The notes beneath the pieces were generated by a model. It worked only from the letters and a program-made list of their open reading frames with translations. It was not told where the DNA came from and made no database searches. Made by a program: the position numbers and the translations under genes. This document shows, in pieces, positions 10,712 to 29,556 of a DNA stretch of 33,218 nucleotides (within the stretch, counting starts at the first letter, position 1; each line of letters starts with the position of its first letter). This DNA comes from an uncultured Roseibacillus sp. (GTDB lineage: Bacteria > Verrucomicrobiota > Verrucomicrobiia > Verrucomicrobiales > Akkermansiaceae): NCBI GenBank assembly GCA_963935445.1, contig CAWWCX010000001.1, positions 1 through 33,218 on the forward strand. Reading direction: 5' to 3'.

Positions 10712-10740
10712 AGTGTAACTGTCTTCCCAACCTTAAGCCG

Positions 10741-11457
10741 ATGGCCAATTTTTTCCCGCGCTGGACGAATGTTTTGCCGCTTAAGATCGCGGTGTGCCTA
10801 GGGGTAGCTGGGGCAGGGGTGGTAGTTGCGTTCTCCTACTACGCCACGCCCAAGGCGCAACGGGTCGGATACCAGCCCGCTCAGCCCATTCCCTATGACC
10901 ACGAGCTGCATGTGAACCAGCTCGGGATGGATTGCCGCTATTGCCATAGCTTCGTCGAGCACTCCGGGCATGCCAACATCCCGTCCGCGAGCACCTGCTG
11001 GAACTGCCACCAGCACGTGCGCAAGGACAGTGAGAAGCTCAAGCCGCTGCGACGGGCCTTTGACACGGAATACTCCGAGTATGATGGCGAGCCCATCAAG
11101 TGGGTGCGGGTCCACAAGAACCCCGATTACGTATTCTTCAACCACTCGGCGCACGTGAACCGGGGAGTTTCCTGTGCGTCCTGTCACGGCAAGGTGAACG
11201 AGATGGAGGTGGTCTATCAGGCTGAATCCCACTCGATGGGCTGGTGTCTCGACTGCCACCGCAACCCGGAGGAGCACCTGAGGCCGCTGGAAGAAGTCTT
11301 CAATCTCGACTATGACGCCGAAAAGTGGCTGGCGGAGAACAAGATCAAGGATCCGGAGTCAGGAAAGGAACTTAAGACCCAGAAAGAGCTTGGCCTCTTT
11401 CTCAAGGGGCACTGGAACATCAAGGCCAAGGAGAGCTGTTCGACCTGCCACCGCTAA
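10741..11457 (+). CDS. actA: Alternative complex III subunit ActA (pentahaem cytochrome c)
   Basis: N-terminal TM anchor and five CxxCH motifs (CRYCH, CWNCH, CASCH, CLDCH, CSTCH). First gene of the act cluster. Start placed at ATG 10741 (MANFFPRW...) rather than GTG 10696. Confidence 0.9.
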   Translation: MANFFPRWTNVLPLKIAVCLGVAGAGVVVAFSYYATPKAQRVGYQPAQPIPYDHELHVNQLGMDCRYCHSFVEHSGHANIPSASTCWNCHQHVRKDSEKLKPLRRAFDTEYSEYDGEPIKWVRVHKNPDYVFFNHSAHVNRGVSCASCHGKVNEMEVVYQAESHSMGWCLDCHRNPEEHLRPLEEVFNLDYDAEKWLAENKIKDPESGKELKTQKELGLFLKGHWNIKAKESCSTCHR

Positions 11458-11460
11458 ACC

Positions 11461-14400: not shown

Positions 14401-15030
14401 TCGATGGCCTACAACCGGTGCATCGGGACCCGCTACTGTGCCAACAACTGTCCCTACAAGGCGCGGCGGTTCAACTATTTCGATTACAACAAGTACAACC
14501 CTCTGGTTGCGCACAACCTCTACAAGGGGCCAGCTGGTGAGACACAGCGAGGTACCGCACCCCATCTTCAGCGTAACCCGAATGTCTCGGTACGCATGCG
14601 CGGAGTGATGGAGAAGTGCACCTATTGTGTGCAGCGTCTGGAGAGCGCCAAGATCAAGCAGAAACAGATCGGGCGCGACAAGACTCTCCGCTCCGGGGCG
14701 AAGTCGACCGAGGTAGCTGTCAGTGCGGAGGATCTGCGGATCAAGCCGGATTCCGTCAAGGTCGCCTGTCAGGATGCCTGCGACGCGAACGCCATCAGCT
14801 TTGGTAACCTGCTCGACAAGGAGGAGGCCAAGGTCTGGAGGGCGAAGTACAAGGGTGAGAAGAAGAACGACAAGGGCTTTGTCGAGGTCATTCACAACCC
14901 GCGAAACTACGACGTTCTGCAGTATATCGGGACGGCCCCGCGGACCAGCTATCTGGCTCGCGTGAAGAACCCCAACCCGGACATGCCGGATGCGGAATAC
15001 CGTGGGCTGGCCACCATTCACACCGCTTAA
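11461..15030 (+). CDS. actB: Alternative complex III subunit ActB (fused molybdopterin-oxidoreductase-like and 4Fe-4S ferredoxin domains)
   Basis: 1189 aa. Tat-type motif SRRSFLKLMGASSAL and a large MopB-like N-domain. The C-domain has Fe-S cysteine clusters CTGCNACLVAC, CVQCENAPCETVCP, CIGTRYCANNCP and CTYCVQR. Confidence 0.93.
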   Translation: MSKRIWHHPEIPVEDEGIASWRSVGELERSPAFQEQLNREFPEGSGHLSEEDQQASRRSFLKLMGASSALSGLTLVSCRRPESYIVPYKKAPEWVIPGKPLYYASSRPRAEGAVPLVVTTFEGRPTKLEPNGGHGEGCGTDALTQASVLNLYDPKRSRDFLKGGQKASQKEFEAVFSSIAQEGGKLAVLVGEDDCPTRNRLKSEIETAYPGSRFYSYEALRGEARREVHTEVFGDGSEVVVDFSKADRILSLDCDFLGVDPMGSHAQFSERRQGGAGDYRQQIDPEVMNRLYAVETAYSLTGGMADHRLRAKPSQIAKIAAEVAAGLDITVGGYEAGRISAEEKTALLGSAENFDKWIEGCVEDLRAHEGKAVVLTGSRHSEDVQRIAVAINKKLGAYGETLVAYATGREGYGTIAELEAEVDSDTTVLLLGPSNPVYDRPGGKFASLLSRAKVSIHLGLRTDATARASDWHVPAAHYLESWGDTRTAGGTYSLVQPMILPLYGGFSEIEILSQLLAWRAVDWSQVDSGNAEDSIPAPKLIAGEGPEGAASPALAEVRKTFALPSNANDESDTAWKEALKNGYLQSSSYSSVEVGDPAPMLTARKSDGIELNFLADASVWDGRYIDNGWLQEAPDPISKLSWDNAALVSPKTAKSLGVYDAVQELEPETDVPLLGKVKNAPKPLIDEGQNAAAPMVRIKTAAGRMEIPVLVAFGHADDCISIALGYGQGASDKRDGVEPASEDDPHAVVGLVGVNTGFNANQLRSDASFSGVAADVARTGERYAVALVQEHNAMNGRALAREISTGEVGYHGKTLPFEKQVAKVREQGPVDSHAPENISLYKRRGSTTWEGDKDKQEDLISDKIHQWGMAIDLNTCTGCNACLVACQAENNIPIVGKQQVAMGREMHWVRMDRYFATPVYEHDEKGYIKKEGGKKVPVPDWVKENPEMVPQPVSCVQCENAPCETVCPVNATVHTEEGLNSMAYNRCIGTRYCANNCPYKARRFNYFDYNKYNPLVAHNLYKGPAGETQRGTAPHLQRNPNVSVRMRGVMEKCTYCVQRLESAKIKQKQIGRDKTLRSGAKSTEVAVSAEDLRIKPDSVKVACQDACDANAISFGNLLDKEEAKVWRAKYKGEKKNDKGFVEVIHNPRNYDVLQYIGTAPRTSYLARVKNPNPDMPDAEYRGLATIHTA

Positions 15031-15051
15031 TCACGAACCCGGAAATTCTTC

Positions 15052-16545
15052 ATGGCAGATACCGCCACCAAGACTGCAAGTGAGGCGTCCGCGCCCCGGG
15101 AAGTGAAGCTCCCGGTGCTGGAGCGTGAGAAGCTTGTTCTCAACAAGCGGTCCTACCACTGGATTACCGAGCGCGTCTGCGGGGTGATTGAGAACAGGCA
15201 GCCCCGGATCTGGTGGGCCCTCTTCATTCCGACCGTCATCATGGCGATCGTGGGCGTGGGCGGAGGGCTGATCTACCTGGTGACAACCGGGGTGGGAGTC
15301 TGGGGCAATACGAACCGCGTGATGTGGGGGTGGCCGATCGTAAACTTCGTGTTCTGGATTGGAATTGGCCACGCCGGAACCCTCATTTCCGCGATCCTCT
15401 TCCTGACCCGCCAGAACTGGCGGACATCGATCAACCGGGCGGCCGAGGCGATGACGATCTTCGCGGTGATCTGTGCCGGAATCTTCCCGGCCTTCCACGT
15501 GGGAAGGGTCTGGATGGCCTGGTATCTCGCGCCCATTCCGAACGCGAATGCGATCTGGCAGAACTTCAAGTCGCCGCTCCTCTGGGACGTCTTCGCGGTC
15601 TCGACCTACTTCTCGATCTCACTCGTGTTCTGGTTCCTCGGGATGGTGCCCGACCTGGCAACCATCCGGGACCGTTGCAAGCGCGGGGTGAAGAAGGCCC
15701 TTTACGGGTTATTCTCCCTTGGGTGGCGCGGTAGTAACCGGCATTGGAGCCACTACGAGATGGCCTACCTTCTCCTCGCGGCGCTCTCGACCCCGCTCGT
15801 CCTTTCGGTGCACTCGGTGGTGAGCTTTGACTTCGCAACCTCCATCGTGCCCGGGTGGCACACCACGATTTTCCCGCCCTACTTCGTGGCGGGAGCCATC
15901 TTCGGAGGGTTCGCGATGGTGCTCACGATCATGATCCCGGCCCGTTTCTTCTACGGGTTGGACGACATGATCACGATGAAGCACATCGACAACATGGCCA
16001 AGATCATCCTCCTGACGGGTTCGATCGTCGGCTATGCCTACCTGATGGAGCTTTTCGTGGCCTTCTACTCGGGGGCCAAATACGAGATGGCGGCCTTCAC
16101 CTACCGGATCACCGGTCCCTACTGGTGGGCCTACGTGGCGATGATGAGCTGTAACGTGCTTTCACCCCAGCTCTTCTGGTTCAAGTGGTGTCGTGAGAAC
16201 CTCTGGGTCGTCATGGGAGTGTCGATGTGTGTGAACGCCGGGATGTGGTTCGAGCGCTTTGTGATTATCGTGACCACCCTCGCGCGTGACTTCATGCCCG
16301 CGAACTGGAAATACTACAACGCAAGCTGGGTGGATATTGGCCTGTTCCTGGGAACGATCGGCCTGTTCACCGCGCTGTTCCTTCTCTTCCTGCGTTTTCT
16401 GCCCTGTATCAACATCGCGGAGGTCAAGTGGGCCAAGGAGGAAAGCGATGTACACTTCGACGACAAGAAGGCGCACCCCGACGAGGGCACGGTTGTGGAA
16501 GCCTCCTACCAGCACGAACTTGAGAAAGGAACTGCCGAAGTCTGA
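15052..16545 (+). CDS. actC: Alternative complex III subunit ActC (NrfD/PsrC-like quinol-interacting membrane subunit)
   Basis: 497-aa polytopic membrane protein of NrfD type directly after actB. Its stop overlaps the actD start (TGATG). Confidence 0.9.
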
Positions 16546-17102
16546 TGAGCACATCTGTCAAACGCGTTTACGGCTACCTGGCCGAGTTTGAAAGCGCCTC
16601 CGCCCTCTACAAGGCGGCCCAGAAGGTGCGTGATGCCGGATTCCGGAAGTGGGATTGCTACACGCCCTACCCGGTGCATGGACTCGACTCCGCCATGGGC
16701 CTGAAGCGCTCAATCCTGCCTTACTTCGTATTCTTCGGCGGTGTTACCGGGCTCATCACCGCCTTCATCCTGGCATACGTGACACAGGTGGGAATCTACC
16801 CCACGGTGGTTCAGGGCAAGCCGGCCAACATCTTTACGGTGCCGGCATTCTTCCCGATCATGTTCGAGCTCACCGTGCTCTTCTCCGGATTTACGACTCT
16901 CTTTGCCTGTCTGGGCCTCTGCCAGCTTCCACGCTGGAACCATCCGCTCTTTGCAAGCCGGCAGTTTCACCGGGTAACCGACGATGGATTCTTCATCGCG
17001 ATTGAAGCGCGGGATCCCAAGTTCTCGGCGGAAGGAACGAAGGGGTTCCTCGATGAAATCGGGGGCGATAATATTGAACTGGTCGAGGACGACGGAAAGT
17101 AA
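16545..17102 (+). CDS. actD: Alternative complex III subunit ActD (DUF3341-type membrane protein)
   Basis: N-terminus YGYLAEFESASALYKAAQKVRDAGFRKWDCYTPYPVHGLD and two TM helices are characteristic of ActD. Its position in the cluster agrees. Confidence 0.88.
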   Translation: MSTSVKRVYGYLAEFESASALYKAAQKVRDAGFRKWDCYTPYPVHGLDSAMGLKRSILPYFVFFGGVTGLITAFILAYVTQVGIYPTVVQGKPANIFTVPAFFPIMFELTVLFSGFTTLFACLGLCQLPRWNHPLFASRQFHRVTDDGFFIAIEARDPKFSAEGTKGFLDEIGGDNIELVEDDGK

Positions 17103-17117
17103 GTTGACGCTGACACC

Positions 17118-17879
17118 ATGAAGTACTTCTTCCTCGCCTTTATCGGAGCAATCGTCCTGACGATCGGAATCTTCGGGTTTCGTGGTGACAAGACGACCAA
17201 CACGCCGATCGAAATCTTCCCGGACATGGACCGCATGGATTTTGTCAAGGGGCAGAAGCCGAGTGATTTCTTCCACGATGGCATGGGAGCGCGCCTTCCG
17301 GTGAGCGGGACGGTGCCGCATGCCAGTGACGACGGCGTCTTTCCGGTGGAATTCGGAGAAGGCAGGACGGGGCACTATTTCACCGGTGCGATCAACGACT
17401 ATTTTGCGAGAGGCCTGCCACTGGAGGAGCTTGGTTTGATTGGGGACGGGGCCGCCGGGGAGATGCAGGCACTGCTGCGGCGTGGGCAGGACCGTTACTC
17501 GATTTTCTGTGCGATCTGCCACGGCGAGGTGGGAGACGGGACAGGCACGGTCAGCCGATACATGGCTGCCAAGATCGCTAACCTGCACGACCCCCGCTTC
17601 GGCAGCGACCAGTATCCCGATGGGATGCTGTATCATGTCATTGCCCAGGGGAAGGGGTTGATGAGCGGATACGGTGCGAGTATTCCGGTGCGGGATCGCT
17701 GGGCCATCGTGGCCTACGTCCGGGCCCTGCAGGATTCGAAGAAGCCGTCGGCTGCTCCTGAGCCGGACGGAGACACCCCGACCGAAGAAAACACCGCGAA
17801 AACGGTGCCAGAGGAGCCTGAAGCCCTGGAACCAGTCGCCTCGGCGAACGACAACCCGGCAGGAGGGGCCACTAACTGA
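17118..17879 (+). CDS. actE: Alternative complex III subunit ActE (monohaem cytochrome c)
   Basis: TM anchor, the conserved IEIFPDMDRM motif, a single CAICH haem site and MSGYG...RWAIVAYVRALQ. The Pro/Glu-rich C-tail is low complexity. Confidence 0.88.
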   Translation: MKYFFLAFIGAIVLTIGIFGFRGDKTTNTPIEIFPDMDRMDFVKGQKPSDFFHDGMGARLPVSGTVPHASDDGVFPVEFGEGRTGHYFTGAINDYFARGLPLEELGLIGDGAAGEMQALLRRGQDRYSIFCAICHGEVGDGTGTVSRYMAAKIANLHDPRFGSDQYPDGMLYHVIAQGKGLMSGYGASIPVRDRWAIVAYVRALQDSKKPSAAPEPDGDTPTEENTAKTVPEEPEALEPVASANDNPAGGATN

Positions 17880-17887
17880 TTTCCGGC

Positions 17888-19225
17888 ATGGCACACGAAC
17901 TGGTCACATCAGCAGATATCCCGGTCGACGGCGAAAAGCTGGAAGCCGACAAGCTGAGCCGCATCAAGGTGGTGTCCCTGGGCATCTTTGGTGTCGGGTT
18001 CATCCTGAGTATCCTGTTGCTCCTCGGGGCTTTCGGGCGGGGGATCCAGGGATCCTACAGCTTCTCCTGGCTTTATGCCTTTTTCTTCTTCGCCACCCTT
18101 GCTCTGGGTGGCTGCTTCTGGACCCTGCTTCACAATGTCTCCAATTCCGGCTGGGGAGTCTCAGTGCGACGGGTGATGGAGAACGTCGGATACGTCTTTC
18201 CCTGGATGATCATCCCCGTTATCCCGCTCCTTCTGCCGCAGGTTCAGGAATTCCTCTACGAATGGATGGAGAAACACCGGATGGCCGGGGGCGGAATCGG
18301 AAAGTCGGCTGCCGATGGCCTGCATCATGGAGAACACACCGATCACCTGCTCTCCAGCAAGTACTGGTATCTCAACATCAGCTTCTGGTACTTCCGGGTG
18401 ATCGCTTATTTCGCGCTTCTGGGGTTTGTAATTCACTTTTTGCGCAAGCTGTCCGTCGACCAGGACATGGACCCGGAACCGGGTGTGAGCCGTCTTTACC
18501 GCGCACGCTTTCACTCCTGCTGGGGGGTTCCCGTGTTCGCGGTTGTGCTCACCTTCCTTGCCATCGATCTCGTCAAGGGACTCGACTACAAGTGGTTCTC
18601 CACGATGTGGGGGGTCTACGTGTTCGCGGGGAGTGCTCTCAACGCGATGGCGGTTATCATCCTCGTTACGATCGCCCTCCGCCGCATGGGCTACCTGAAG
18701 AACGTGGTCGGTCCCGAGCATGACCACCTGATGGGCAAACTGGCCTTTGCGTTCACGGTGTTCTGGGCCTATATATCCTTCGACCAGTATTTCCTCTACT
18801 GGTATGCCAACATCACGGAAGAGACCCGCTACTTTGTCCTTCGTAACACCGGCGGGTGGAACTACGTGAGTATCCTTTTGGTCTTTGGACACTTTGCCGC
18901 ACCTTTCCTTCTCCTCATCCGACAGGATCTCAAGCGTCGGAACGGCTATATGATCATTGTCGCCGGCTACCTCCTCTTCATGCACATGATCGATGTCTAT
19001 CACATGATCATCCCCGAACGCGGGCCTTCCGTGAGCAAGATCCTCAATCCCGATGACCCGGAGAAGTGGGTCCTCTGGCTCAATGGTTCGCTCGTGGGAG
19101 ATATCCTCGCCTTTGTGACGGTGGGGGCCTTTTTCCTGTTCGTCCTCCTGCGCAACCTCGGGTCGGCCGCTCTCTATCCGCACCGCGACCCGCGTATTCT
19201 CGAATCAGCCAACGTGCATAACTGA
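17888..19225 (+). CDS. actF: Alternative complex III subunit ActF (second NrfD-like membrane subunit)
   Basis: 445-aa polytopic membrane protein following actE. Its stop overlaps the next start (TGATG). Confidence 0.85.
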   Translation: MAHELVTSADIPVDGEKLEADKLSRIKVVSLGIFGVGFILSILLLLGAFGRGIQGSYSFSWLYAFFFFATLALGGCFWTLLHNVSNSGWGVSVRRVMENVGYVFPWMIIPVIPLLLPQVQEFLYEWMEKHRMAGGGIGKSAADGLHHGEHTDHLLSSKYWYLNISFWYFRVIAYFALLGFVIHFLRKLSVDQDMDPEPGVSRLYRARFHSCWGVPVFAVVLTFLAIDLVKGLDYKWFSTMWGVYVFAGSALNAMAVIILVTIALRRMGYLKNVVGPEHDHLMGKLAFAFTVFWAYISFDQYFLYWYANITEETRYFVLRNTGGWNYVSILLVFGHFAAPFLLLIRQDLKRRNGYMIIVAGYLLFMHMIDVYHMIIPERGPSVSKILNPDDPEKWVLWLNGSLVGDILAFVTVGAFFLFVLLRNLGSAALYPHRDPRILESANVHN

Positions 19226-19995
19226 TGGACTCGGCGAACGACAATCCTCTCAAGCGATTCTCCACCTTCTGGGTCGGGCTGGTTCTTTTTGCCGCTTTCG
19301 GGCTGGTGGGTCTGGTCCTGGGTATGATCGGTTTCAACAAGCCTGTCAAAAACGGCTACGACGAGGTGAACTCCGAGCGCCGTGAAACAATCAGGGAAGA
19401 GGTCGATAAGACTCACTCAGGAGCCAGGGAGTTGGCGGACAAGAGCTTCGAACGGGTGGGTGCCGTTTATCTCGAGAGTGCTCCCGTGGCGGTGGAAAAG
19501 CCCGAGTTCATTCTGCCGGGTTCTGCCACCCAGCTCGGCAAGGCGTCCGGCGGAACGGGAGTGAAGGTTCCGGCAGGATTCCCGGAAGTGGCCGCCGACG
19601 CGCCCATCGACCCGGCCGTGATGGCCAAGGGGCAGGCTCTCTACGCGGTCTGCTCAGCTTGCCACGGACCCAACGGAGAGGGGATGTATCACATCAACAA
19701 GACGGGACCGCCGCTCGCAGACTCGGAGTGGGTCGTGGGCCCGGTGGCCAATTTGATCGCCATCCAGTTCCGCGGCTTGAACGGGACGATCGAGGTGAAC
19801 GGCAAGTCCTACACCCCGGTTGCCCCAATGGCTCCCCTTCCTCTCGACGACGAGTCGGTTGCGGCCGTGCTCACTTATATTCGAAACAGCTTTGGGAACA
19901 AGGCCTCGCCGGTCACCGCGGAGCAGGTGAAAGCCATGGAAGGGGAGAAGGGCAAGCCCATGTTGAGCCCGGCCGATCTCATTCCGCCAAAATAA
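19225..19995 (+). CDS. Membrane-anchored monohaem class I cytochrome c
   Basis: One N-terminal TM helix (FWVGLVLFAAFGLVGLVLGMIGF), a linker, then a c-domain with CSACHG, PPLADSEWV and TYIRNSFGN. Translationally coupled to actF. Confidence 0.85.
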   Translation: MDSANDNPLKRFSTFWVGLVLFAAFGLVGLVLGMIGFNKPVKNGYDEVNSERRETIREEVDKTHSGARELADKSFERVGAVYLESAPVAVEKPEFILPGSATQLGKASGGTGVKVPAGFPEVAADAPIDPAVMAKGQALYAVCSACHGPNGEGMYHINKTGPPLADSEWVVGPVANLIAIQFRGLNGTIEVNGKSYTPVAPMAPLPLDDESVAAVLTYIRNSFGNKASPVTAEQVKAMEGEKGKPMLSPADLIPPK

Positions 19996-20013: not shown

Positions 20014-21510
20014 ATGGTCACAGACACTGACAGCGATACGGCGTTGCAAAAGGATCTTGAGCTGCGGGCAAGAATTGACCGCTCGCTGCGGCACCCCGTG
20101 ATGTTCTTCTTTACCAGCGGGGCGGCGTGGCTGGCAGTGGCGGTCCTGCTCGGATTCATTTCCTCATTCAAGTCGCACGATTCGACCTTCCTCGCGAACC
20201 TGGGCTTTCTGAACTATGGGCGGGTGTACCCGGCCCACCTCACGGTCCTGATCTACGGCTGGGGTTGCCAGGCGGCCTTCGGACTCATCATCTGGCTCAT
20301 GGCGCGCCTCTCCCGCAAGGAGTGCACTTCGGTCGGGGTGATTCTTACCGCCGGACACCTCTGGAATTTCGGGGTGAGCGTGGGGGTGCTCGGAATTCTT
20401 GCAGGATATGGATCGGGACGCCCCTGGATGGAGTTTCCCGCGGCAGTCTGGCCCTTGCTGCTGGTGAGTTACTTTTTCATCACAATCTGGTCCTTCATCC
20501 AGTTCCGTTGCAGTGAAGGGGGCAAGACCTATGTGGCGCAGTGGTACCTGGTCGCAGCACTCTTCTGGTTTCCCTGGATCTACCTGAGCGCCCACCTGTT
20601 TGTCTTTGTTTTCAACGGGCACCCCGTCATGGCCGCCGGCGTGAATGCGTGGTTCAAGTATGCGCTTATTTTCCTGTTCTTCACCCCGGTGGCTCTTGGA
20701 ACGGCCTACTACCTTGCGCCCAAGGTCACGGGGCGTCCTGTTTACAGTTACACGCTGGCGCTTTTCGGATTCTGGGCCCTTGCGGTCATTGGCCCCTGGG
20801 CTGGAATGCAGAAGCTGGCGGGCGGTCCACTCCCGCAGTTTCTTCCCTATCTGGGTGCGGCGGCGACCGTTCTCATTCTCATTCCGGCCCTCGCGGTGGG
20901 AGTGAACATTCTCCTGACATTGCGTGGACACGAGGCCGAGGTGGCCGCCAGTCCATCGCTGCGCTTCACCATCGGGGGTATTGTCAGCTTCGTGATACTC
21001 GGGGTGATGGGGCTGGGCCTGAATACTCCGGCATCCCTCAAGATGACTCAGTTTTCACTCGCCGGGTATGGCTTTGAGGTGCTTGCCATTTATGGCTTCT
21101 TCAGCATGTGCGCCTTCGGGGGGATCTATTTTATCGTCCCGCGGATTACCCGGCGTGAGTGGTTGTCGCGTCGTTTCATCTCGTGGCACTTCTGGCTCAG
21201 TCTCTACGGGATCGGAACCGTGGTGGTCTGCTCGATCCTGGGCGGGCTTTTCCAGGGAGCGGCCCAAGAGGCTTACAACTCCGCTTGGTCTGATGCCGCC
21301 ACCCGAAATTACGCTTACAATGTCGGAACAACCGTGGCCTGGGGTTTAATCATCTTCAGTAGTCTCTTCTTTCTCCTCCATCTCCTTCTGATGTGGGCCC
21401 GTCTCGGTCGGCGCAGTCAGCATCCGACTCTCCTGAAGGGTGACCATCACGAGGATTCGCCCCACGGGCCGGATGGCGATCTCGATGAACTCCAAACCGC
21501 GGAAGCCTGA
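20014..21510 (+). CDS. CcoN-like (cbb3 oxidase subunit I homologue) polytopic membrane protein lacking the CuB, haem b3 and second haem b histidine ligands
   Basis: 498 aa, about 12 TM helices. Collinear with CcoN at YGRVYPAHLTVLIYGWG, AYYLAPKVTGRPVYSY and SWHFWLSLYG. The canonical WWYGH, GPHH and GHVH ligand motifs read AWFKY, GMQK and GFEV. See findings. Confidence 0.75.
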   Translation: MVTDTDSDTALQKDLELRARIDRSLRHPVMFFFTSGAAWLAVAVLLGFISSFKSHDSTFLANLGFLNYGRVYPAHLTVLIYGWGCQAAFGLIIWLMARLSRKECTSVGVILTAGHLWNFGVSVGVLGILAGYGSGRPWMEFPAAVWPLLLVSYFFITIWSFIQFRCSEGGKTYVAQWYLVAALFWFPWIYLSAHLFVFVFNGHPVMAAGVNAWFKYALIFLFFTPVALGTAYYLAPKVTGRPVYSYTLALFGFWALAVIGPWAGMQKLAGGPLPQFLPYLGAAATVLILIPALAVGVNILLTLRGHEAEVAASPSLRFTIGGIVSFVILGVMGLGLNTPASLKMTQFSLAGYGFEVLAIYGFFSMCAFGGIYFIVPRITRREWLSRRFISWHFWLSLYGIGTVVVCSILGGLFQGAAQEAYNSAWSDAATRNYAYNVGTTVAWGLIIFSSLFFLLHLLLMWARLGRRSQHPTLLKGDHHEDSPHGPDGDLDELQTAEA

Positions 21511-21518
21511 ACCCTACC

Positions 21519-22250
21519 ATGACCTTCAAAGCCTTCATGTCTGCGCTGGCGGTGAGCTTCGCCGTCCCATGGTTTCTCATCATCGTGGTCCCCTACGGAA
21601 AGATGCGTGATCTCGAGCCGGTGCACTTCGAGCAGGACAGTGATGGTCGCGATGAGGTATACGTGCCCCGTCGCTCGGGCAGGATTTCAACCGGTTCCGC
21701 GGTATATGGAGCCAATGGGTGCTACGTCTGCCATACCCAGATGATTCGCAAGGGCTTTGCAGGGTCGGAACTGGGTCGGCCGGACTGGGCAGGTTTCCGC
21801 GTTCAGGATGAGAGCGGTGTCAGCATCAACACGTCCCGGGAAACGACGCCGTATGACTTTGTCGGGGAAGAGTTTGCCCATGTCGGGATCATGCGTGTCG
21901 GGCCGGATCTCAGTAACGTTGCGGGACGCGTTCAGAAATATCTGGATCACCCGCTCACCAAGGCGGACAGCCCGGAGGGTTGGCTATACCTGCATCTCTA
22001 CAACTCAGCGCTCAAGACGGTAACCTTGAACAACAAGTTCGGGTGTCCGCGACAGACTCATCTTTTCAAGGAACAGCCCCGCGTAGGGCAGGGCAGCCCG
22101 GATGCCGTTCCGGGGTTGGAAAATGAGGGGATGGAAGTCCTGCCCACTGGAAATGCCAAGGCGCTGGTCAGCTACCTCCTTTCCCTGAAGAAGGACGATG
22201 CGGTGCCTTACAGTATCAATTACAGCCGCGATAAGAAGAAGGCCGAGTAA
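21519..22250 (+). CDS. CcoO-like monohaem cytochrome c (cbb3 oxidase subunit II homologue)
   Basis: N-terminal TM helix, GCYVCHTQMIR (compare CcoO GCxGCHSQMIR), RVGPDLSNVAGR (CcoO GPDLARVGGR) and WLYLHLYN (CcoO WHRAHLYNP). Confidence 0.8.
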   Translation: MTFKAFMSALAVSFAVPWFLIIVVPYGKMRDLEPVHFEQDSDGRDEVYVPRRSGRISTGSAVYGANGCYVCHTQMIRKGFAGSELGRPDWAGFRVQDESGVSINTSRETTPYDFVGEEFAHVGIMRVGPDLSNVAGRVQKYLDHPLTKADSPEGWLYLHLYNSALKTVTLNNKFGCPRQTHLFKEQPRVGQGSPDAVPGLENEGMEVLPTGNAKALVSYLLSLKKDDAVPYSINYSRDKKKAE

Positions 22251-22270: not shown

Positions 22271-23059
22271 ATGGCCCATTCCAAGGATTCCGAAAACCAG
22301 CGTCCCGACCTCGAGGACAGCACCAACGTGGTGGAAGCGCACGCCTCCCTGCTGGCCACCGGAGCGGCCCAGTCGAGGGAGAGACGTATTGAGGAAACCG
22401 GGATGGAACCGGTGTCCCTGTGGGTCTTCCTCGGTAGCGCGATCGTTCTCCTGGTAGGAGGGGCGGTAGTGGGTGCGGGGGGTAAGCTGTTCAACTACGA
22501 CCCCCATCCAACCAGCTACGTGCGGCCGGAGTATATCAGCGATGCCGACAGTGGGCCGACGATCGGGCCCATCATGGAAGCCCTCATGAAGCGGGGTAAG
22601 AATATCTATACCAAGTGCAGCGGCTGCCATGGTTCCAGCGGAGCGGGGGACGGAGGCAACCGGCCTCCTCTTGCGAATTCCGAGTGGGTCACGGGGAGCC
22701 CCGAGCGTCTCGCAATGATCATCCTGAACGGGGTGAAGGGACCGATCGTGGTTGACGGCAAGACCTACGGGGCGGACGTCATGGACGGGCAGGGGCCGCT
22801 TACTGCGGATGAACTCGCTGGGATCATGACATACGTGCGCAACAGCTTTGGAAACGAGGTGGGCGACGTGGTGACTCCCGAGCAGGCCGCGGAGGCCATC
22901 AAGATATCCAATGCCCGTGCCGGAGCGCACATGAGTGCCGACGAATTGAACGCGAACCACGACAAGGTGCTCGAGGGTGATCCCATCGACCCAAGCACGC
23001 CGGTGGACTTTGAAACCCTCAAGCCCGTGGAGGGGTCAGCCCCCGCTCCAGCCGAGTAA
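22271..23059 (+). CDS. Membrane-anchored monohaem class I cytochrome c (paralogue of 19225..19995)
   Basis: One TM helix (LWVFLGSAIVLLVGGAVVGAG) and a c-domain with CSGCHG, PPLANSEWV and TYVRNSFGN, collinear with the c-domain of the 19225 gene. Confidence 0.85.
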   Translation: MAHSKDSENQRPDLEDSTNVVEAHASLLATGAAQSRERRIEETGMEPVSLWVFLGSAIVLLVGGAVVGAGGKLFNYDPHPTSYVRPEYISDADSGPTIGPIMEALMKRGKNIYTKCSGCHGSSGAGDGGNRPPLANSEWVTGSPERLAMIILNGVKGPIVVDGKTYGADVMDGQGPLTADELAGIMTYVRNSFGNEVGDVVTPEQAAEAIKISNARAGAHMSADELNANHDKVLEGDPIDPSTPVDFETLKPVEGSAPAPAE

Positions 23060-23080: not shown

Positions 23081-24988
23081 ATGAGTGCAGAAGCGGCAGC
23101 AGATCACGGTCATGGTCACGACGACCATCACGACGACCATCACCACGACCCCCCGTTCTATAAGAAGTATATCTGGTCCACCGATCACAAGGTGATTGGT
23201 ATCCAGTATGGGATTACCGCGCTGCTTTTCCTGGCGTTCGGATTTTTCCTGATGATGGTGATGCGCTGGAGCATTGCCTATCCCGAAGAGCCTCTCCCAT
23301 GGTACCTGAACTGGATTTTCAGCGAGGAATGGAAGGCCCGGTGGCTGGTCGATGGCAAGGTTACCGGTGATACCTACAACATGTTCGGTGCCATGCATGG
23401 AACCATCATGGTTTTCCTTGGTATCGTGCCTCTTGGATTCGCGGCCTTCGGGAACTTTGTCACCCCACTCCAGATTGGAACGGTCGACATGGCTTTCCCG
23501 CGCCTGAACATGCTCAGTTACTGGTGCTACCTCGTAGGTGGCCTCGTCATGTGTGCGAGCTTCTTCATGGAGTCCGGAGCGGCAAAGTCCGGTTGGACGA
23601 ACTACTCTCCCCTCGCCAACTTCGCGGATGGGCAGATTGTGAACCAGTTCCTGGCGGGTCAGACGCAATGGCTCCTCGGAATGGTCTTCCTGATCACATC
23701 CTCTCTCCTCGGTGCGGTCAACTTCCTGACTACTCTCATCAACCTGCGTGCCAAGGGCATGACCTGGATGCGAATGCCCTTCTTCTGCTGGGCCATGCTT
23801 GTGACCGGGTTCCTCCTTCTCCTCGCCTTTCCGCCCCTCGAGGTGGCCGCCCTGATGCAGTTGATGGACCGGACGGTCGGTTCGAGTTTCTTCATGCCCA
23901 GCGGACTCTACACCTCCGGCTCAGGTGTCGTGGAGGCGTCCGGGGGAGGCAGCCCGCTGCTCTATCAGCATCTTTTCTGGTTCCTTGGGCACCCGGAGGT
24001 CTACGTCCTCCTCCTGCCCGCGATCGCCTGTGTGGCGGAAATCATACCGGTAAACACACGGAAGCCACTCTGGGGCTACAAGCCCATGGTCTGGTCGATC
24101 GTGATCCTTGGTTTCCTGAGCTTCATCGTATGGGCCCACCACATGTATCTTACCGGGATGGGACCGGTTGTTTCCACATGGTTCCAGACCACTACGGTGT
24201 TGATTTCGGTGCCCTCGGTCATCCTGCTGACATCCATGATCGTGTCTCTCTGGGGAGGCTCGATCCGATTCAACGTTCCGATGTTGTGGGCAGTTGCGTT
24301 CCTGCCCATGTTCGGAATCGGGGGCCTGACAGGCCTTCCCCTCGCTTTCAACCTGGTGGACCTGCACCTGCACGATACCTATTACGTGATCGGGCACTTC
24401 CACTATGTGGTGGCCCCCGGGGTGCTCTTCGGTCTCTTTGCCGGCATCTACCACTGGTATCCGAAGATCACAGGTCGGCACATGAATACGACTCTCGGGC
24501 ATCTCCATTTCTGGCCGTCCCTGATTTTCATGAACGTTCTCTTCTTCCCGATGCTCATCCAGGGCATGGCCGGGTTTCACCGGCGGTGGTATAACGGAGG
24601 TGACGCCTACCTGGCCAAGGCAGCCGGAAGCGAGAACATCTTTGGCAATACCGTGGCGGAATGGATTCACCTCAATCCGGTGATGACCTGGGGTGCGTTC
24701 CTGCTCGCCCTGTCCCAGATTCCCTTCTTCATCAATTTCTGGTCCAGCCTGTTCGTCGGGGAAAAGATCAAGAACGACAACCCCTACGATGCGACCACTC
24801 TCGAGTGGGCGACTCCTACCCCGCCGCCGCATGGGAACTTCACCTTCGACGTGGCGGCCTACCGTGGTCCATACGAATACAGCCGTGATGACCACGAGGG
24901 GGACTTCTTTCCCCAGTGGGAAGAACCCAGGCGAGAGAAACCAGCCGAGCAACCGGATCCTGAACCGGAAGCCGAGCCAGCCCCGTAA
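23081..24988 (+). CDS. ctaD: Haem-copper oxidase subunit I, A-type (aa3-type cytochrome c oxidase)
   Basis: All canonical motifs are present: STDHKVIGIQY, AMHGTIMVF, VDMAFPRLN, GWTNYSPL, FWFLGHPEVYVLLLP, VWAHHMY and HLHDTYYVIGHFHYV. Confidence 0.96.
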   Translation: MSAEAAADHGHGHDDHHDDHHHDPPFYKKYIWSTDHKVIGIQYGITALLFLAFGFFLMMVMRWSIAYPEEPLPWYLNWIFSEEWKARWLVDGKVTGDTYNMFGAMHGTIMVFLGIVPLGFAAFGNFVTPLQIGTVDMAFPRLNMLSYWCYLVGGLVMCASFFMESGAAKSGWTNYSPLANFADGQIVNQFLAGQTQWLLGMVFLITSSLLGAVNFLTTLINLRAKGMTWMRMPFFCWAMLVTGFLLLLAFPPLEVAALMQLMDRTVGSSFFMPSGLYTSGSGVVEASGGGSPLLYQHLFWFLGHPEVYVLLLPAIACVAEIIPVNTRKPLWGYKPMVWSIVILGFLSFIVWAHHMYLTGMGPVVSTWFQTTTVLISVPSVILLTSMIVSLWGGSIRFNVPMLWAVAFLPMFGIGGLTGLPLAFNLVDLHLHDTYYVIGHFHYVVAPGVLFGLFAGIYHWYPKITGRHMNTTLGHLHFWPSLIFMNVLFFPMLIQGMAGFHRRWYNGGDAYLAKAAGSENIFGNTVAEWIHLNPVMTWGAFLLALSQIPFFINFWSSLFVGEKIKNDNPYDATTLEWATPTPPPHGNFTFDVAAYRGPYEYSRDDHEGDFFPQWEEPRREKPAEQPDPEPEAEPAP

Positions 24989-25009: not shown

Positions 25010-26998
25010 ATGGAGATTCCCTATACAGTCACCGCTCGGAAGGATACCGGCCTTTTCAATTCGAAGGTTGGAATCTGGCTCTTCCTTGCCTCGGAAGTGA
25101 TGCTCTTTGGCGGCCTATTCTCGGGCTACGTGTTCCTGCGGATTTATGCCGATTACCCATGGCCCGAGCGCGCCCTGCCGATCGTGCCCGGCCTCATCAA
25201 CACCTTCGTTCTCATCGGGTCATCAGTCACGGTGGTCTTTGCGTGGGCTTCCCTGAAGATGCGGCAATGGCGCCGGTTCCAGATATTCATGGGCCTCACC
25301 ATTGTCTGTGCGGGAATGTTCATGGTCCTCAAGGGGATCGAGTATAAGGCAAAGTGGGGACACCAGGCCGTACGCATGGATGACTTCACCATCGTGGAGG
25401 GCCACACCCACTACGGTGCAATCATGTCCAACGGGGAGGTGCAGCGCTTCCAGAAGAAGGACAAGGCCAAGGAGGCTGCGAAGAAGGACGCTGAGGCATT
25501 CAATAAGGAGGCCGAAGCGAAGGCGAAGGCCGCAGCCCAGGCAAAGGGCGAGGATTTTGCCGGCCTCCCCGATGACCAGAAGTGGCAGGCGGGTGATTAT
25601 TTCAAGGCCAACACGGTTCTCTTTCAGCCAGATACGGTTGAGTTCTCGCTGGCGCGGGCCCACCGCAACTGGGTGAACGATCTCGTCGCGCAGGCGGAGA
25701 AGCGGCAGTCGAGTTTCGTGACCGGAAAGGACGTCTTCATATACGGAGACATCGAGGATTATTCGGGAAGCGAAGAGAAGCCGAAGTCGAATGACGAGCG
25801 TGGCCGGGAAGAGGCCGAGATCATCAAGGAATATGCCGCTGCGGAGAAGATGCCCCGCAAGCTGGGCAGCAATTCGCTCTTCATACCGGCCGGGACCCCG
25901 CTCAGCTACTCGTTGCTCAAGGAAGCGCGCGAGGTCTACCTCGCAGGCCGGGCACACAACTCCGAAACCCGCACAGCCATCCTTCGGGATAACTGGAAAA
26001 GGGTGAAGGAAGAACGGCCGGATGACAAATACTGGGAGCAGGCCCCTGATGCCCAGATCGACTCCGCCAGCCAGTTGGACGAACAGCTCGATGAGGCCGG
26101 TAAGGTCACCTCGGGGAGCAAAGTCGTTTCCATTGTGTCGACCCTGTCTTTCCGCATGGATCCACCGCAGCCGCTGGTGATCAAGCGTGGATGGGTGAAG
26201 CGGCCCGTCAAGGAGTCCGACGGGAAGGCGGAGTTAAAGGACGACACGGCCCTTAATGCCGGAACGGACGGCCGGGCGGAGGTAGCTCCGGGTCTGCTGG
26301 AGAGTCCGCTGGCGCTCTCGGTTGATGCGGTCGATTTCCGCTGGATGGCCCAGAAGGCCGAGGAAGCGAACAAGAAGCCGCTTGATGTGATCGAGGGCAG
26401 CTGGATCTTCTCGGACGAGAACAAGCACGCAGGCACCTACAAGAAGCTCTGGAAACTCCACAAGAAGAGGATTGCTCACCTGGAAGAGCGACTGAAGGAC
26501 AAGTATGGCACGGATGAGGAAGGTAATCCCAAGCGTGTGCCTACCGAGACTGAGCGCTATCGAATGGGCTGGCAGGACCTCGTTCAATACGCGCGGGCAG
26601 AAAATGATGACCAGCGGGCTGTTCCCGGCGATGCCGCCTTCGACGACCTGCGGCCCAAGTTCTACCATGGATTTGCCGGCCCCAATCACAAGGACGAGGA
26701 GATCCACAAACTGCATGCCTTTCCCGAGCTGGAGATTCCCCATGAGAAGGTGTCCTTGCAGTCCATGTTCACTCCGAAGTGGAACACCTACTACGCAATC
26801 TACTTCACTCTCACGGGCCTTCACGGGCTTCACGTGATTGGTGGGGCAATCGTGCTCGCCTATTACCTGTTCTGCAGCAAGGGGCTTTACCGACGCAATC
26901 CTGAGTGGCTCGCCAACCGGGTGGAGGTTGGAGGACTCTTCTGGCACTTCGTCGATCTCGTCTGGATCTTTCTCTTTCCGATCCTATATCTCATGTAA
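25010..26998 (+). CDS. ctaE: Cytochrome c oxidase subunit III (5-TM form) carrying a roughly 470-aa hydrophilic insertion
   Basis: The N-terminal 112 aa (WLFLASEVMLFGG..., ...LKGIEY) and the C-terminal about 70 aa (YFTLTGLHGLHVIGG, GGLFWHFVDLVWIFLFPILY) are canonical CoxIII. Residues about 113-591 between them are charged, have no TM helix and contain no Cys. Confidence 0.88.
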   Translation: MEIPYTVTARKDTGLFNSKVGIWLFLASEVMLFGGLFSGYVFLRIYADYPWPERALPIVPGLINTFVLIGSSVTVVFAWASLKMRQWRRFQIFMGLTIVCAGMFMVLKGIEYKAKWGHQAVRMDDFTIVEGHTHYGAIMSNGEVQRFQKKDKAKEAAKKDAEAFNKEAEAKAKAAAQAKGEDFAGLPDDQKWQAGDYFKANTVLFQPDTVEFSLARAHRNWVNDLVAQAEKRQSSFVTGKDVFIYGDIEDYSGSEEKPKSNDERGREEAEIIKEYAAAEKMPRKLGSNSLFIPAGTPLSYSLLKEAREVYLAGRAHNSETRTAILRDNWKRVKEERPDDKYWEQAPDAQIDSASQLDEQLDEAGKVTSGSKVVSIVSTLSFRMDPPQPLVIKRGWVKRPVKESDGKAELKDDTALNAGTDGRAEVAPGLLESPLALSVDAVDFRWMAQKAEEANKKPLDVIEGSWIFSDENKHAGTYKKLWKLHKKRIAHLEERLKDKYGTDEEGNPKRVPTETERYRMGWQDLVQYARAENDDQRAVPGDAAFDDLRPKFYHGFAGPNHKDEEIHKLHAFPELEIPHEKVSLQSMFTPKWNTYYAIYFTLTGLHGLHVIGGAIVLAYYLFCSKGLYRRNPEWLANRVEVGGLFWHFVDLVWIFLFPILYLM

Positions 26999-27019
26999 TT
27001 GCTTCTGATCCGACCGGCC

Positions 27020-27394
27020 ATGGCTGATACACCTGAAGACATCAAGAACGCCCAGAAGAAGTATCTCCTGATCGGGCTTATTCTATTCATCTTCACCGTC
27101 GTGACGGTGGCGGTGGCGACCGTTCCCTGGCTTGACTTTGGCGAGCATGGCTTCGACGGAATCGACGCCGTCATCGGCCTCCTGATCGCCAGCGTAAAGG
27201 CGACCCTCGTGGGTGCGATTTTCATGCACCTCAATCACGAGAAGCGGACTATTTACGGTCTGATTGTGCTTGGGGTCCTGATGGGCCTCTGTCTGGTGGT
27301 CCTGACGGGATGGTCCTTCATCGACCCCATTGAGTATGGCAGCCCCGTGGAAGGGGACGGCTTTTACAACCCGCCGGAAACAGTAAACCAGTAA
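27020..27394 (+). CDS. ctaF: Prokaryotic cytochrome c oxidase subunit IV family protein
   Basis: About 124 aa and 3 TM helices. KKYLLIGLILFIFTVVTVAVA and ASVKATLVGAIFMHLNHEKR fit the small subunit IV (CtaF/CyoD-like) pattern. The track start TTG 26999 was replaced by ATG 27020. Confidence 0.75.
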   Translation: MADTPEDIKNAQKKYLLIGLILFIFTVVTVAVATVPWLDFGEHGFDGIDAVIGLLIASVKATLVGAIFMHLNHEKRTIYGLIVLGVLMGLCLVVLTGWSFIDPIEYGSPVEGDGFYNPPETVNQ

Positions 27395-27407: not shown

Positions 27408-27611
27408 ATGTCCCTTCGTGGATTTCACATCGTATTTATTACCGTAACGACCATCCTCAGTCTCTTTCTGGCGGGATGGGCGATCTTTCTGGCGCCAGCC
27501 AGCGGGGGGGTAGTGAGGACAATCCTGATGGTGACCGGGTGTGCCGGGGCGATCCTCTTCCCAGTCTACGGAATCTATTTCTACCGCAAGGCGAGAAAAC
27601 TCATCCTCTAG
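27408..27611 (+). CDS. Small two-TM membrane protein (67 aa), function unknown
   Basis: ORF packed 13 nt after subunit IV, with two hydrophobic helices and a basic C-terminus (YRKARKLIL). Support comes only from operon context and hydrophobicity. Confidence 0.55.
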   Translation: MSLRGFHIVFITVTTILSLFLAGWAIFLAPASGGVVRTILMVTGCAGAILFPVYGIYFYRKARKLIL

Positions 27612-27632: not shown

Positions 27633-27827
27633 ATGAATGTTGAGTCCATCCAGCTAGCCTGCACGACCTGCGCGAACGCTTTCAAGGAAGGCGGAGGTGA
27701 TGCCGCCGGCTGGTCCATCCTCTTCATGCTGGCGATGATTGTTCCTGTCCTGGGGGCTACGGGCGTCTGCATGATCCGGATCGTGCGCCGTGAGCGGGAA
27801 GCACTCGATCCCAAGTACGCTGATTAA
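27633..27827 (+). CDS. Small single-TM protein (64 aa) with N-terminal CxxC motif, function unknown
   Basis: ACTTCANAFKEGGGDAAGWSILFMLAMIVPVLGATGVCMI, then a basic stretch RIVRRERE. Packed 21 nt after the previous ORF and 45 nt before coxII. Confidence 0.55.
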   Translation: MNVESIQLACTTCANAFKEGGGDAAGWSILFMLAMIVPVLGATGVCMIRIVRREREALDPKYAD

Positions 27828-27872: not shown

Positions 27873-28745
27873 ATGGACCTCCTCTTCTCCTCCACTCTCC
27901 TCGACTACATGGGCATGCCGGAGAACTACGCGGAACATGGAGGCAGTGTGGACCACATGATCGAGATCGTGCACTGGTTCATGATCGCACTCTTCGTGGG
28001 CTGGACCTCCTTCTTCCTGTTTGCCTGCTGGAGATTCTGGCAGCGGCGTCAGGCGAAGGCGTCCTACCATGGAGTGCGGAACCACGTGACAACCCACCTT
28101 GAGATCGGGGTAGCAATCTTCGAGGGAGTGCTGCTTCTTGGTTTCGCTTTCCCGCTCTGGGCGGAGCGGACCGATCGATTTGAAGACATCCAGGCCCAGG
28201 ACCCTGTCCGTGTCAGGGTGATCGGCTATCAGTTCGCGTGGAGCTACCATTACCCGGGGGCGGATGGAAAGTTCGGCCGGATCGACCGGCATCTCGTCCA
28301 GAAGCCGGGGGATGCATGCATCGACCCGGAGGATCCCAATGGCTGGGATGACTTTGTCTCACCCATCCTCAAGATTCCGGTCGGAGAGCCCTGCATCCTG
28401 CAGGTGACCTCCACAGACGTGATTCACGGTTACGCGATCGTGCCGATGCGGATCCAGCAGGATGCCATCCCGGGAACGGACATTCCGATGTGGTTCCGTC
28501 CCTTGAAGGAGCTGGAGACCAGCGTGGTGTGTGCCCAGCTGTGCGGGGAGCAGCACGGGGACATGGTCGGAATCATGCAGGTGGTCAGCAAGGGTGCCTT
28601 CACCTCATGGTCGGAGGAGCAGAGCAGCGCGGCCTACGACCGGAACTCGAAAGCCGCCGCAGCGGTTGAAGAAGTCGCCGGCGGGGCAGAAGACGTTGAA
28701 GGGGGTGCTGCCGCAGCTCCCGATACCCTGCCAGCGGGTGGTTAG
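27873..28745 (+). CDS. ctaC: Cytochrome c oxidase subunit II (CuA cupredoxin, no fused cytochrome c domain)
   Basis: Two N-terminal TM helices. CuA ligand pattern DVIHGYAIVPMRIQQDAIPG ... CAQLCGEQHGDM (H, C-x3-C-x3-H-x2-M). Low-complexity Ala/Gly/Glu C-tail and no CxxCH. Confidence 0.9.
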   Translation: MDLLFSSTLLDYMGMPENYAEHGGSVDHMIEIVHWFMIALFVGWTSFFLFACWRFWQRRQAKASYHGVRNHVTTHLEIGVAIFEGVLLLGFAFPLWAERTDRFEDIQAQDPVRVRVIGYQFAWSYHYPGADGKFGRIDRHLVQKPGDACIDPEDPNGWDDFVSPILKIPVGEPCILQVTSTDVIHGYAIVPMRIQQDAIPGTDIPMWFRPLKELETSVVCAQLCGEQHGDMVGIMQVVSKGAFTSWSEEQSSAAYDRNSKAAAAVEEVAGGAEDVEGGAAAAPDTLPAGG

Positions 28746-28869: not shown

Positions 28870-29556
28870 ATGCTCATCCGGGACTTGCCCGAACAGAAAC
28901 GTCCGCGGGAAAAGATGATCAGCGAGGGGGCCGGGTCCCTGACGGATGCGGAGCTCCTCGCCATCTTCCTGCGGGTGGGCGTGAAGGGAGAGAGCGCGAT
29001 TGCGGTCGGGCAGCGCCTGCTGGCGACTCATGGAGGACTGGCCGCACTCGGTGCGCTCGATATCGCGCAACTGACCCAGGAGCATGGCCTCGGCCAGGCC
29101 AAGGCTGCCCAGCTCGCGGCCGCGTTTGAGCTGGGGGCCCGGGTCGCGCGGGAAAAGGCGCCCCTTCGCCAGCTTGATTGTCCCCGGGCCGCCTTGGAGG
29201 TGTTCGGACCACAGCTGCGGCATCTCGCCCATGAAACCCTTCGCGTGGCACTTCTTGATACCCGCCTGCAGGCGACTCGCTTCCTCACGCTCTCGGAGGG
29301 TAATCTCAATGCGACGGTTGCTCATCCCAGGGACATTCTGCACCCTGTCATCCTGCACCGGGCTTATGGCTTTCTTCTCGTGCATAATCACCCCTCGGGA
29401 GACCCGTCGCCGAGCAGGGCTGACCGCGAACTGACCCGGCGTGTGGCGGCGGCAGCGTCACTCCTGCAGGTGGAGTTTCTTGATCACCTCATTATCGGAA
29501 AGGCATCGGAACGTAACGAAGGCTACTTTTCGTTCCGGGACAGTGGTCTGCTCTGA
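28870..29556 (+). CDS. radC: RadC-family JAB/MPN-domain protein
   Basis: N-terminal LPEQKRPREKMISEGAGSLTDAELLAIFLRVG (HhH region) and C-terminal JAMM motif LVHNHPSGDPSPSRADRELTRR. Confidence 0.92.
   Translation: MLIRDLPEQKRPREKMISEGAGSLTDAELLAIFLRVGVKGESAIAVGQRLLATHGGLAALGALDIAQLTQEHGLGQAKAAQLAAAFELGARVAREKAPLRQLDCPRAALEVFGPQLRHLAHETLRVALLDTRLQATRFLTLSEGNLNATVAHPRDILHPVILHRAYGFLLVHNHPSGDPSPSRADRELTRRVAAAASLLQVEFLDHLIIGKASERNEGYFSFRDSGLL

Follow-up and report, generated by a model that had tools for sequence, protein, structure and literature searches.

A large, predicted periplasmic domain nested in the V-VI loop of cytochrome c oxidase subunit III in Verrucomicrobiota

Few parts of the haem-copper oxidases are as conserved, or as sparsely decorated, as subunit III. 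A folded periplasmic domain of 30-50 kDa within it is unexpected. The question of whether such a domain exists, and what it might do there, is raised by the gene for subunit III (CoxIII) in a stretch of DNA of 33,218 nucleotides from an uncultured Roseibacillus sp. (Verrucomicrobiota, Akkermansiaceae; assembly GCA_963935445.1, contig CAWWCX010000001.1, positions 1 to 33,218 of the forward strand), hereafter called the window. An earlier note, made from the sequence of the window alone, had claimed that the core of this CoxIII is split by an insert of about 470 residues, located in the loop between the helices equivalent to V and VI. The insert was assigned to positions 25346-26782, which correspond to residues 113-591. 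In the present analysis, the gene was divided as follows:

25010-26998, plus strand: CoxIII of the type with five transmembrane (TM) helices, carrying a nested, predicted periplasmic insert, 662 aa (list of open reading frames, ORFs; Pfam COX3 in two stretches; phmmer against the PDB; full-length homologues)
25046-25354, plus strand: residues 13-115, forming the counterparts of TM helices III, IV and V, with K108-G-I-E111-Y112 at the end (AlphaFold2 helices 13-48, 58-83 and 87-115; hydropathy; alignment to 2yev 608-718)
25355-25450, plus strand: N-side beta-strands of a putative pedestal, residues 116-147 (AlphaFold2 strands 118-123, 128-133, 135-138 and 144-147; occupancy; column counts)
25454-25552, plus strand: long helix rich in Lys, Ala and Glu (KAE helix), residues 149-181, a lineage-specific decoration (AlphaFold2 helix 150-178; gaps in homologues)
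25601-26719, plus strand: predicted inner alpha/beta ectodomain, residues 198-570 (confidence mostly above 90; conservation; dN/dS; profile)
26720-26782, plus strand: C-side strands of the putative pedestal, residues 571-591, with P589 invariant (AlphaFold2 strands 573-576 and 581-586; occupancy; column counts)
26783-26995, plus strand: residues 592-662, forming the counterparts of TM helices VI and VII and containing GLHGLHV (aligned with 2yev 723-790 and with 8hcr_G 134-201; AlphaFold2 helices 593-622 and 631-661)

The Pfam COX3 profile (PF00510) matched the 662-aa protein with 58.2 bits (cut-off 23.8) in two separate stretches. When the protein was aligned with PDB chains by phmmer, residues 9-119 were paired with residues 608-718 of 2yev_A and residues 592-661 with residues 723-790, and the alignments with mycobacterial CtaE, E. 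coli CyoC and mitochondrial COX3 agreed on this split core. The V-VI loop comprised about 472 residues in the window protein, whereas 2yev has about 5 residues there and 8hcr_G about 18. Both the split of about 470 residues at this loop and the statement that ordinary V-VI loops have fewer than 20 residues (about 5-20 in solved oxidases) were thus borne out. Five TM segments were found in the whole protein, by hydropathy and as AlphaFold2 helices. GLHGLHV (603-609) and S28-E29 aligned with the same motifs of 2yev, so that the helix VI motif of COX3 and the acidic residue of helix III are present, and at the end of helix V the residues K108, E111 and K115 were invariant and Y112 was found in 76 of 77 Verrucomicrobiota sequences.

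Profile, motifs and gene context place the protein in the COX3 family, and its parent enzyme is an A-family (aa3-type) cytochrome c oxidase. The NCBIfam models of CtaE (NF050119), CyoC (TIGR02842, NF007944) and QoxC (TIGR02897) gave 60-79 bits against cut-offs of 190-340; since these scores are far below the cut-offs, the protein is placed by its profile scores outside these named subfamilies. The long V-VI loop is an architectural departure, and no ground for exclusion from the COX3 family.

The length of the gene raised the possibility of an artefact, and the insert was examined at the level of homologues, metagenome contigs and codons. The 120 best database homologues were 524-662 aa long and nearly all of them spanned 100% of the query; full-length orthologues were found at 97, 88 and 86% identity, and homologues were also present in sequenced isolates of Roseibacillus, Luteolibacter and Rubritalea. 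Contigs from four independent marine metagenome runs spanned the ORF with substitutions only and zero indels. In the comparison with the 86%-identical orthologue (locus L081), dN/dS was 0.05 over the whole insert and 0.03-0.06 over the TM core; it was 0.03-0.04 in core blocks 291-530 and 0.03-0.07 over the conserved blocks of the inner domain where dS was estimable. The G+C content was 57-63% throughout the window, with no compositional break at the CoxIII gene. Additionally, metatranscriptome contigs at least 99% identical were found at 25162-25352, 25688-25969 and 26113-26261 (insert-coding part), for which DNA carry-over is possible.

These results confirmed that the insert is genuine, and frameshift, two genes and junk sequence were excluded. 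The missed frameshift or second gene that the earlier note had named as its own possible refutation was ruled out by the full-length homologues, the purifying selection and the indel-free metagenome contigs. An intein was also rejected: no Hint or endonuclease match was obtained in Pfam (E up to 10) and no Cys or Ser nucleophile is present at the N-side junction, while the predicted fold is alpha/beta with long helices and N592 belongs to the CoxIII core, where it aligns with N723 of 2yev.

The insert was then modelled. The full-length AlphaFold2 model (58-sequence alignment) had a mean predicted local distance difference test score (pLDDT) of 86.7 and a predicted template modelling score (pTM) of 0.78; the pLDDT exceeded 90 over most of the insert. 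The model of the insert alone (17 sequences) had a mean pLDDT of 88.9 and a pTM of 0.81. According to these models, the insert is folded, with a mixed alpha/beta architecture, which agrees with the earlier impression of a foldable sequence. The confidence over the insert ruled out a disordered linker, and the alternative of a disordered and poorly conserved insert did not fit either the confident fold or the dN/dS of 0.05. No Cys and no TM segment were found in the insert, whose peak 19-residue hydropathy of 1.07 lies under TM level, and no CxxCH was found anywhere in the protein, as the earlier note had also described; a cytochrome c domain like that of the caa3-type fusions was rejected for this reason. 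The composition of the insert included 2.7% His and 1.5% Met, with a net charge of -11.

In the alignments, the insert is nested: a putative conserved pedestal lies outside, the inner domain lies within it, and the KAE helix is a lineage-specific addition. The first hairpin (residues 116-133) was conserved across the phylum, with H118, D125, G131 and H132 all invariant or nearly so. The first strands (118-123 and 128-133) and the last strands (573-576 and 581-586) were read as pairing into a small predicted pedestal sheet. Residues 111-130 had an occupancy of 1.00 in short, mid and long CoxIII proteins (the length classes described below), and likewise the C-side strands 571-591. Within the inner domain, blocks 201-240, 291-340, 371-415, 431-465, 481-530 and 551-560 were conserved and 241-290 was variable, and invariant charged or aromatic positions (D411, D439, D442, R518, W465, W481 and W521) were dispersed over it. 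The recurring hairpin-helix pattern prompted a search for internal repeats or module duplication, and hhalign of nine sub-blocks returned only one trivial overlap.

The KAE helix deserves separate mention, as it had been taken for the beginning of the insert and for a coiled-coil-like element. The conserved beta-hairpin region (116-147) comes first and the KAE helix (about 149-181) follows it. A long helix is indeed predicted at this position; nevertheless, it is a lineage-specific decoration and not the start or the core of the domain. It was gapped in 50-77% of the homologues and had an occupancy of 0.03-0.14 in the long class; both this helix and segment 241-290 were missing from most relatives. 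In many of them the helix was replaced at the same position by tracts rich in His, Asp and Gly. Tracts rich in His (5-8 His per 20 aa, often as HGxxH repeats) recurred in the variable parts of the inserts of loci L006, L027, L036, L046, L052, L056, L074 and others, and in the examples read they were located after the N-side hairpin or before the C-side pedestal strand. Of 81 locus proteins, 27 had tracts with at least 5 His in 20 aa inside the insert, as did 37 of 120 database homologues; the window protein does not have them.

On which side of the membrane the insert lies was considered from the charge distribution. Counts of Lys and Arg were 4 in the IV-V loop, 4 in the VI-VII loop and 1 in the III-IV loop. 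Five-helix subunits III such as CyoC have the N-terminus inside and the V-VI loop outside. Because of these positive-inside counts and this established topology, the insert most likely faces the periplasm, in agreement with the side proposed in the earlier note.

No credible match for the insert was obtained in Pfam (E up to 10), NCBIfam, a PDB phmmer search or a PDB profile search. The structural similarity search that the earlier note had suggested also gave no match: at E <=0.001, Foldseek returned nothing for the full-length and insert-only models against the PDB, or for the insert-only model against BFVD, the best matches being generic ferredoxin-like units at E >=0.25 or COX3 chains on the TM part. 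When 1.84 billion representative proteins were searched with the insert by phmmer, 29 matches were obtained; the 10 longest were checked and all were CoxIII, and the remainder were shorter and probably fragments. In a profile search, 41 matches were obtained among 5.8 billion proteins, of which 40 had a precomputed Pfam COX3 annotation and the remaining one (P0121) matched COX3 weakly. Hence, no relatives of the inner domain outside CoxIII were found within the sequence libraries, the PDB and BFVD searched. The named homologues carry the labels 'cytochrome c oxidase subunit 3', 'heme/copper-type cytochrome/quinol oxidase subunit 3' or 'hypothetical protein', and no description of this CoxIII insert was found in the searchable full-text literature.

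A survey of CoxIII lengths in related genomes, also suggested in the earlier note, was carried out by a locus scan with one genome per species, which returned 80 loci. All of them were labelled Verrucomicrobiota except L071 (see below), L041 ('metagenome') and L052 ('uncultured bacterium'). The proteins, 255-662 aa long, fell into three classes:

Short class, 255-310 aa, insert of about 50-120 aa: Methylacidiphilales, Chthoniobacterales and unclassified metagenome-assembled genomes (MAGs)
Mid class, 444-517 aa, insert of about 260 aa upward: Verrucomicrobiaceae, Prosthecobacter and Brevifollis
Long class, 530-662 aa, insert of up to about 480 aa: MAGs labelled Akkermansiaceae, Luteolibacter, Haloferula, Rubritalea, Roseibacillus and the window

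The flanks of the insert, EYxxKFHHxxVxLxDGTxxxGHL and DIxFxSxFTPxxNTYY, were common to all three classes, and the putative pedestal is, by these alignments, common to all sampled Verrucomicrobiota. A hidden Markov model (HMM) of the inner part (residues about 140-567) matched all but two of the long-class proteins with E values of 1e-44 to 1e-125. Most mid-class proteins were matched weakly, in the central beta block, and nine were unmatched; no short-class CoxIII was matched. Single-linkage BLAST nevertheless united every mid and long insert in one family. The simplest history would be that the short pedestal originated early in the phylum and that the large domain arose from it once, in Verrucomicrobiales, and then diverged fast; in the marine lineage of Roseibacillus type, the inner domain would additionally have gained the KAE helix and a second variable segment. 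Cultured carriers include Roseibacillus persicicus, R. ishigakijimensis, Luteolibacter sp. SL250, Rubritalea marina DSM 17716 and R. tangerina.

Some labels in the survey call for a comment. L071 is binned as 'Candidatus Chromulinivoraceae', a Dependentiae family; it contains a short-insert CoxIII of Verrucomicrobia type with CoxI, CoxIV and CoxII, and is probably a mis-binned contig. Several lake MAGs labelled 'Akkermansia muciniphila' (L060, L065 and L078) also have an aa3 operon, which suggests that these labels are unreliable.

The CoxIII gene of the window lies in a co-oriented run that begins with the genes of alternative complex III (ACIII) and ends with CoxII. The other members of this run are:

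10696-19225, plus strand: ACIII genes ActA, ActB, ActC, ActD and ActE, and an ORF without a Pfam match (17888-19225) at the position of ActF (Pfam for ActA-ActE; synteny in 47 loci and in L081 and L082)
19225-19995, plus strand: monohaem cytochrome c (Pfam, NCBIfam)
20014-21510, plus strand: divergent CcoN-like protein, 498 aa (Pfam, NCBIfam)
21519-22250, plus strand: divergent CcoO-like protein, 243 aa (Pfam, NCBIfam)
22271-23059, plus strand: second cytochrome c, with an N-proximal hydrophobic stretch (Pfam, NCBIfam)
23081-24988, plus strand: CoxI, A-family, GHPEVY present (Pfam COX1, 438 bits)
26999-27394, plus strand: CoxIV, probable start at 27020 (Pfam, NCBIfam)
27408-27611 and 27633-27827, plus strand: two small TM ORFs (ORF calls; gene calls in L081; conservation)
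27873-28745, plus strand: CoxII, with CuA ligands and no haem c (Pfam, NCBIfam)

The same gene order was found in a Tara Oceans relative. CoxI, CoxIV and CoxII were syntenic with CoxIII in all 82 related loci, as far as the contigs extend. Among the loci of the mid and long classes whose contigs extend 6 kb or more upstream, the cluster of ActBCDEF, CcoN-like, CcoO-like, cytochrome c and CoxI-III-IV-II was present in 44 of 44. The same cluster was found in 3 of 10 short-insert loci, namely Methylacidimicrobium tartarophylax and two MAGs labelled Methylacidiphilales, with inserts of about 75 aa. The lengths of CoxI, CoxII, CoxIV, cytochrome c, CcoN and CcoO and the counts of haem motifs were constant across the insert classes. 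Because the sizes of the partner subunits do not change with the size of the insert, the inner domain represents an addition and not a replacement, and the possibility that the insert compensates for a loss elsewhere was ruled out by the unchanged sizes of the neighbouring subunits and cytochromes.

Several features of the neighbouring genes were also recorded. The CcoN-like protein scored 103 bits against a cbb3 equivalog cut-off of 583, and the CcoO-like protein 27 against 201; this pair, which lies between the ACIII and aa3 genes in 47 related loci, points to a divergent haem-copper oxidase resembling the C family. The small membrane ORFs between CoxIV and CoxII encode 67 aa (the first) and 64 aa with a CxxC and a hydrophobic stretch (the second). 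They are called as genes in L081 and L082, and by blastp the first was detected in 67 of the 82 loci and the second in 39, mostly with long inserts; additional subunits of the oxidase, or factors for its assembly, are possible roles for them. CoxII comes last in the order CoxI-CoxIII-CoxIV-(two small ORFs)-CoxII, unlike in the common order CoxII-CoxI-CoxIII-CoxIV, and this arrangement was kept in the Verrucomicrobiota loci examined wherever the contig extends to CoxII.

The N-terminus of CoxI (23081-23160) is strongly rich in His and Asp (DHGHGHDDHHDDHHHD), and at 23116-23150 the metatranscriptome contigs showed loose ends and a 35-base joint that 'goes back', which suggests either length variation of the His/Asp repeat among strains or cross-matching of simple repeats. 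ActB (11461-15030) has 1189 aa, more than the roughly 1000 aa usual for ActB in characterised ACIII. A RadC-like JAB-domain gene (28870-29556) lies directly downstream of CoxII, as it also does after CoxII in L081 and L082; elsewhere in the loci, RadC was matched just once, in L027, and there on the opposite strand.

What, then, could the ectodomain do? The earlier note had proposed that it docks or shields within a supercomplex, a plausible though hypothetical role. The reading that we favour, with about as much confidence as doubt, is that of a built-in supernumerary structural domain, a hypothesised scaffold or docking surface on the outer face of the oxidase. It is favoured because the domain has no cofactor or catalytic motif, sits on the subunit that contacts ACIII in F. 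johnsoniae and is co-encoded with ACIII. The ectodomain would cap the outer face of the oxidase at the subunit III side, which is the side that touches ACIII in the only solved ACIII-aa3 supercomplex, and could there stabilise or organise the contacts with partners encoded in the same cluster: the haem subunits of ACIII, the cytochromes c and, possibly, the cbb3-like oxidase. In F. johnsoniae the five-helix subunit III mediates the contacts between ACIII and the oxidase, and in M. smegmatis CtaE does so with complex III (PMC8361435). A stronger form of this proposal would make the ectodomain, with its fold without a PDB relative, a periplasmic bridge that locks aa3, ACIII, the cytochromes c and perhaps the cbb3-like oxidase into an obligate megacomplex in Verrucomicrobiales; we put it forward tentatively and regard it as doubtful.

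Several observations weigh against the structural domain so proposed. Three Methylacidiphilales loci keep the gene cluster with an insert of about 75 aa, and because of this the large domain is not required for the gene association nor, presumably, for electron transfer from ACIII to the oxidase. Since all large-insert lineages form one clade, the perfect co-occurrence of insert and cluster amounts to one evolutionary event. Purifying selection would be equally expected if the domain merely had to fold harmlessly in an essential subunit. Finally, the assignment of partners is hypothetical, drawn as a plausible one from gene context and from the analogy with supercomplexes.

The same evidence can be read in other ways. 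In a neutral or constructive-neutral elaboration, a permissive V-VI pedestal would have accreted sequence that is kept only for folding, with no specific partner or activity. The wide range of the inserts, from about 50 to about 480 aa, with whole segments gained or lost across lineages, would fit such a course, as would the interchange of low-complexity KAE or His/Asp/Gly tracts at one position, the weak or missing match of the long-class HMM to the mid class, and the lack of free-standing homologues, which leaves no sign of a captured functional domain. Nevertheless, the core blocks and the TM helices have equal dN/dS, many charged and aromatic positions of the inner domain are invariant, and the domain is kept across the whole order, and we consider pure elaboration unlikely on balance. 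The alternative of a module handling metals or protons at the outer face, either capturing copper for the assembly of CuA or serving as a buffering or proton-collecting surface, draws on the invariant or nearly invariant H118, D125, G131 and H132 of the pedestal, on the His-rich tracts that recur in the inserts of relatives and on the likewise His-rich N-terminus of CoxI. However, H118 is shared with ordinary subunits III (it aligns to the YHH of 2yev), the His-rich tracts are confined to variable segments and do not occur in the window protein, the absence of Cys and 1.5% Met leave no recognisable Cu(I) motif, and no similarity to Sco, PCuAC or another metal-binding fold was detected, all of which makes this function quite improbable.

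An equally slim probability was given to a periplasmic tether or regulatory sensor with a binding target outside the respiratory chain, such as the cell envelope or a soluble ligand. A large, acidic alpha/beta domain without relatives (net charge -11) and weak Foldseek matches to generic ferredoxin-like alpha+beta units are compatible with it; no peptidoglycan-binding, solute-binding or sensor family was matched, however, the Foldseek search gave nothing at E <=0.001, and no neighbour genes other than respiratory ones were correlated with the insert. An artefact or a mobile insertion (a frameshift fusion, an intein or the remnant of a mobile element) was considered for the unusual length alone. 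Nothing in favour of it was found, and with indel-free contigs, full-length orthologues, homologues in isolates, strong purifying selection at the codon level and a flat G+C profile it has a negligible probability.

The large CoxIII domain is fixed throughout an entire order of bacteria that are abundant in the environment. The graded series from an ordinary loop through the pedestal of about 75 aa to a domain of 260-480 aa would illustrate, with dates, the evolution of such additions. If it is true that the domain organises the assembly of ACIII with the oxidase, bacteria would have in it a counterpart of the supernumerary subunits by which mitochondrial supercomplexes are shaped. The existing cultured carriers make the role of the ectodomain directly testable.

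The window CoxIII was finally compared with known systems. Both of its TM halves aligned with the subunits III of the I+III fusion of T. thermophilus caa3 oxidase (2YEV), CtaE (6ADQ and 8HCR), CyoC (1FFT) and QoxC (6KOB), with E values down to 1e-15 for 2yev, 1e-13 to 1e-11 for CtaE and about 1e-10 to 1e-9 for CyoC and QoxC. Like those five-helix subunits III, it has the EY...H motif after helix V, GLHGLHV in helix VI and a gene beside CoxI and CoxIV; unlike them, with their V-VI loops of about 5-20 residues, it has a loop of about 470 with a predicted folded domain. The short-insert CoxIII of other Verrucomicrobiota (255-310 aa) have the same pedestal flanks and the same CoxI-III-IV-II order, and those of Methylacidiphilales also share the ACIII/CcoNO cluster, but they do not contain the inner domain.

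Subunit III of F. johnsoniae is not known to carry an ectodomain. In the F. johnsoniae supercomplex (Sun et al., 2018, via PMC8361435), ACIII is paired with an aa3 oxidase whose subunit III has five helices, and in the window the genes of the same two complexes lie together; the verrucomicrobial cluster differs in that it also encodes a pair of cbb3-like oxidase proteins and two additional monohaem cytochromes c. In the COX3 of Chlamydomonas (382 aa, 9F5X) and in the nuclear-encoded accessory subunits of complex IV, extra mass is likewise placed on the core without new cofactors, and for enlarged COX3 and supernumerary subunits a structural or supercomplex role is generally assumed. These proteins are unrelated in sequence. 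Just the C-terminal part of the 382-aa chain of 9F5X aligns with the window protein, which places its extra mass outside the V-VI loop, and the mitochondrial accessory subunits are separate polypeptides.

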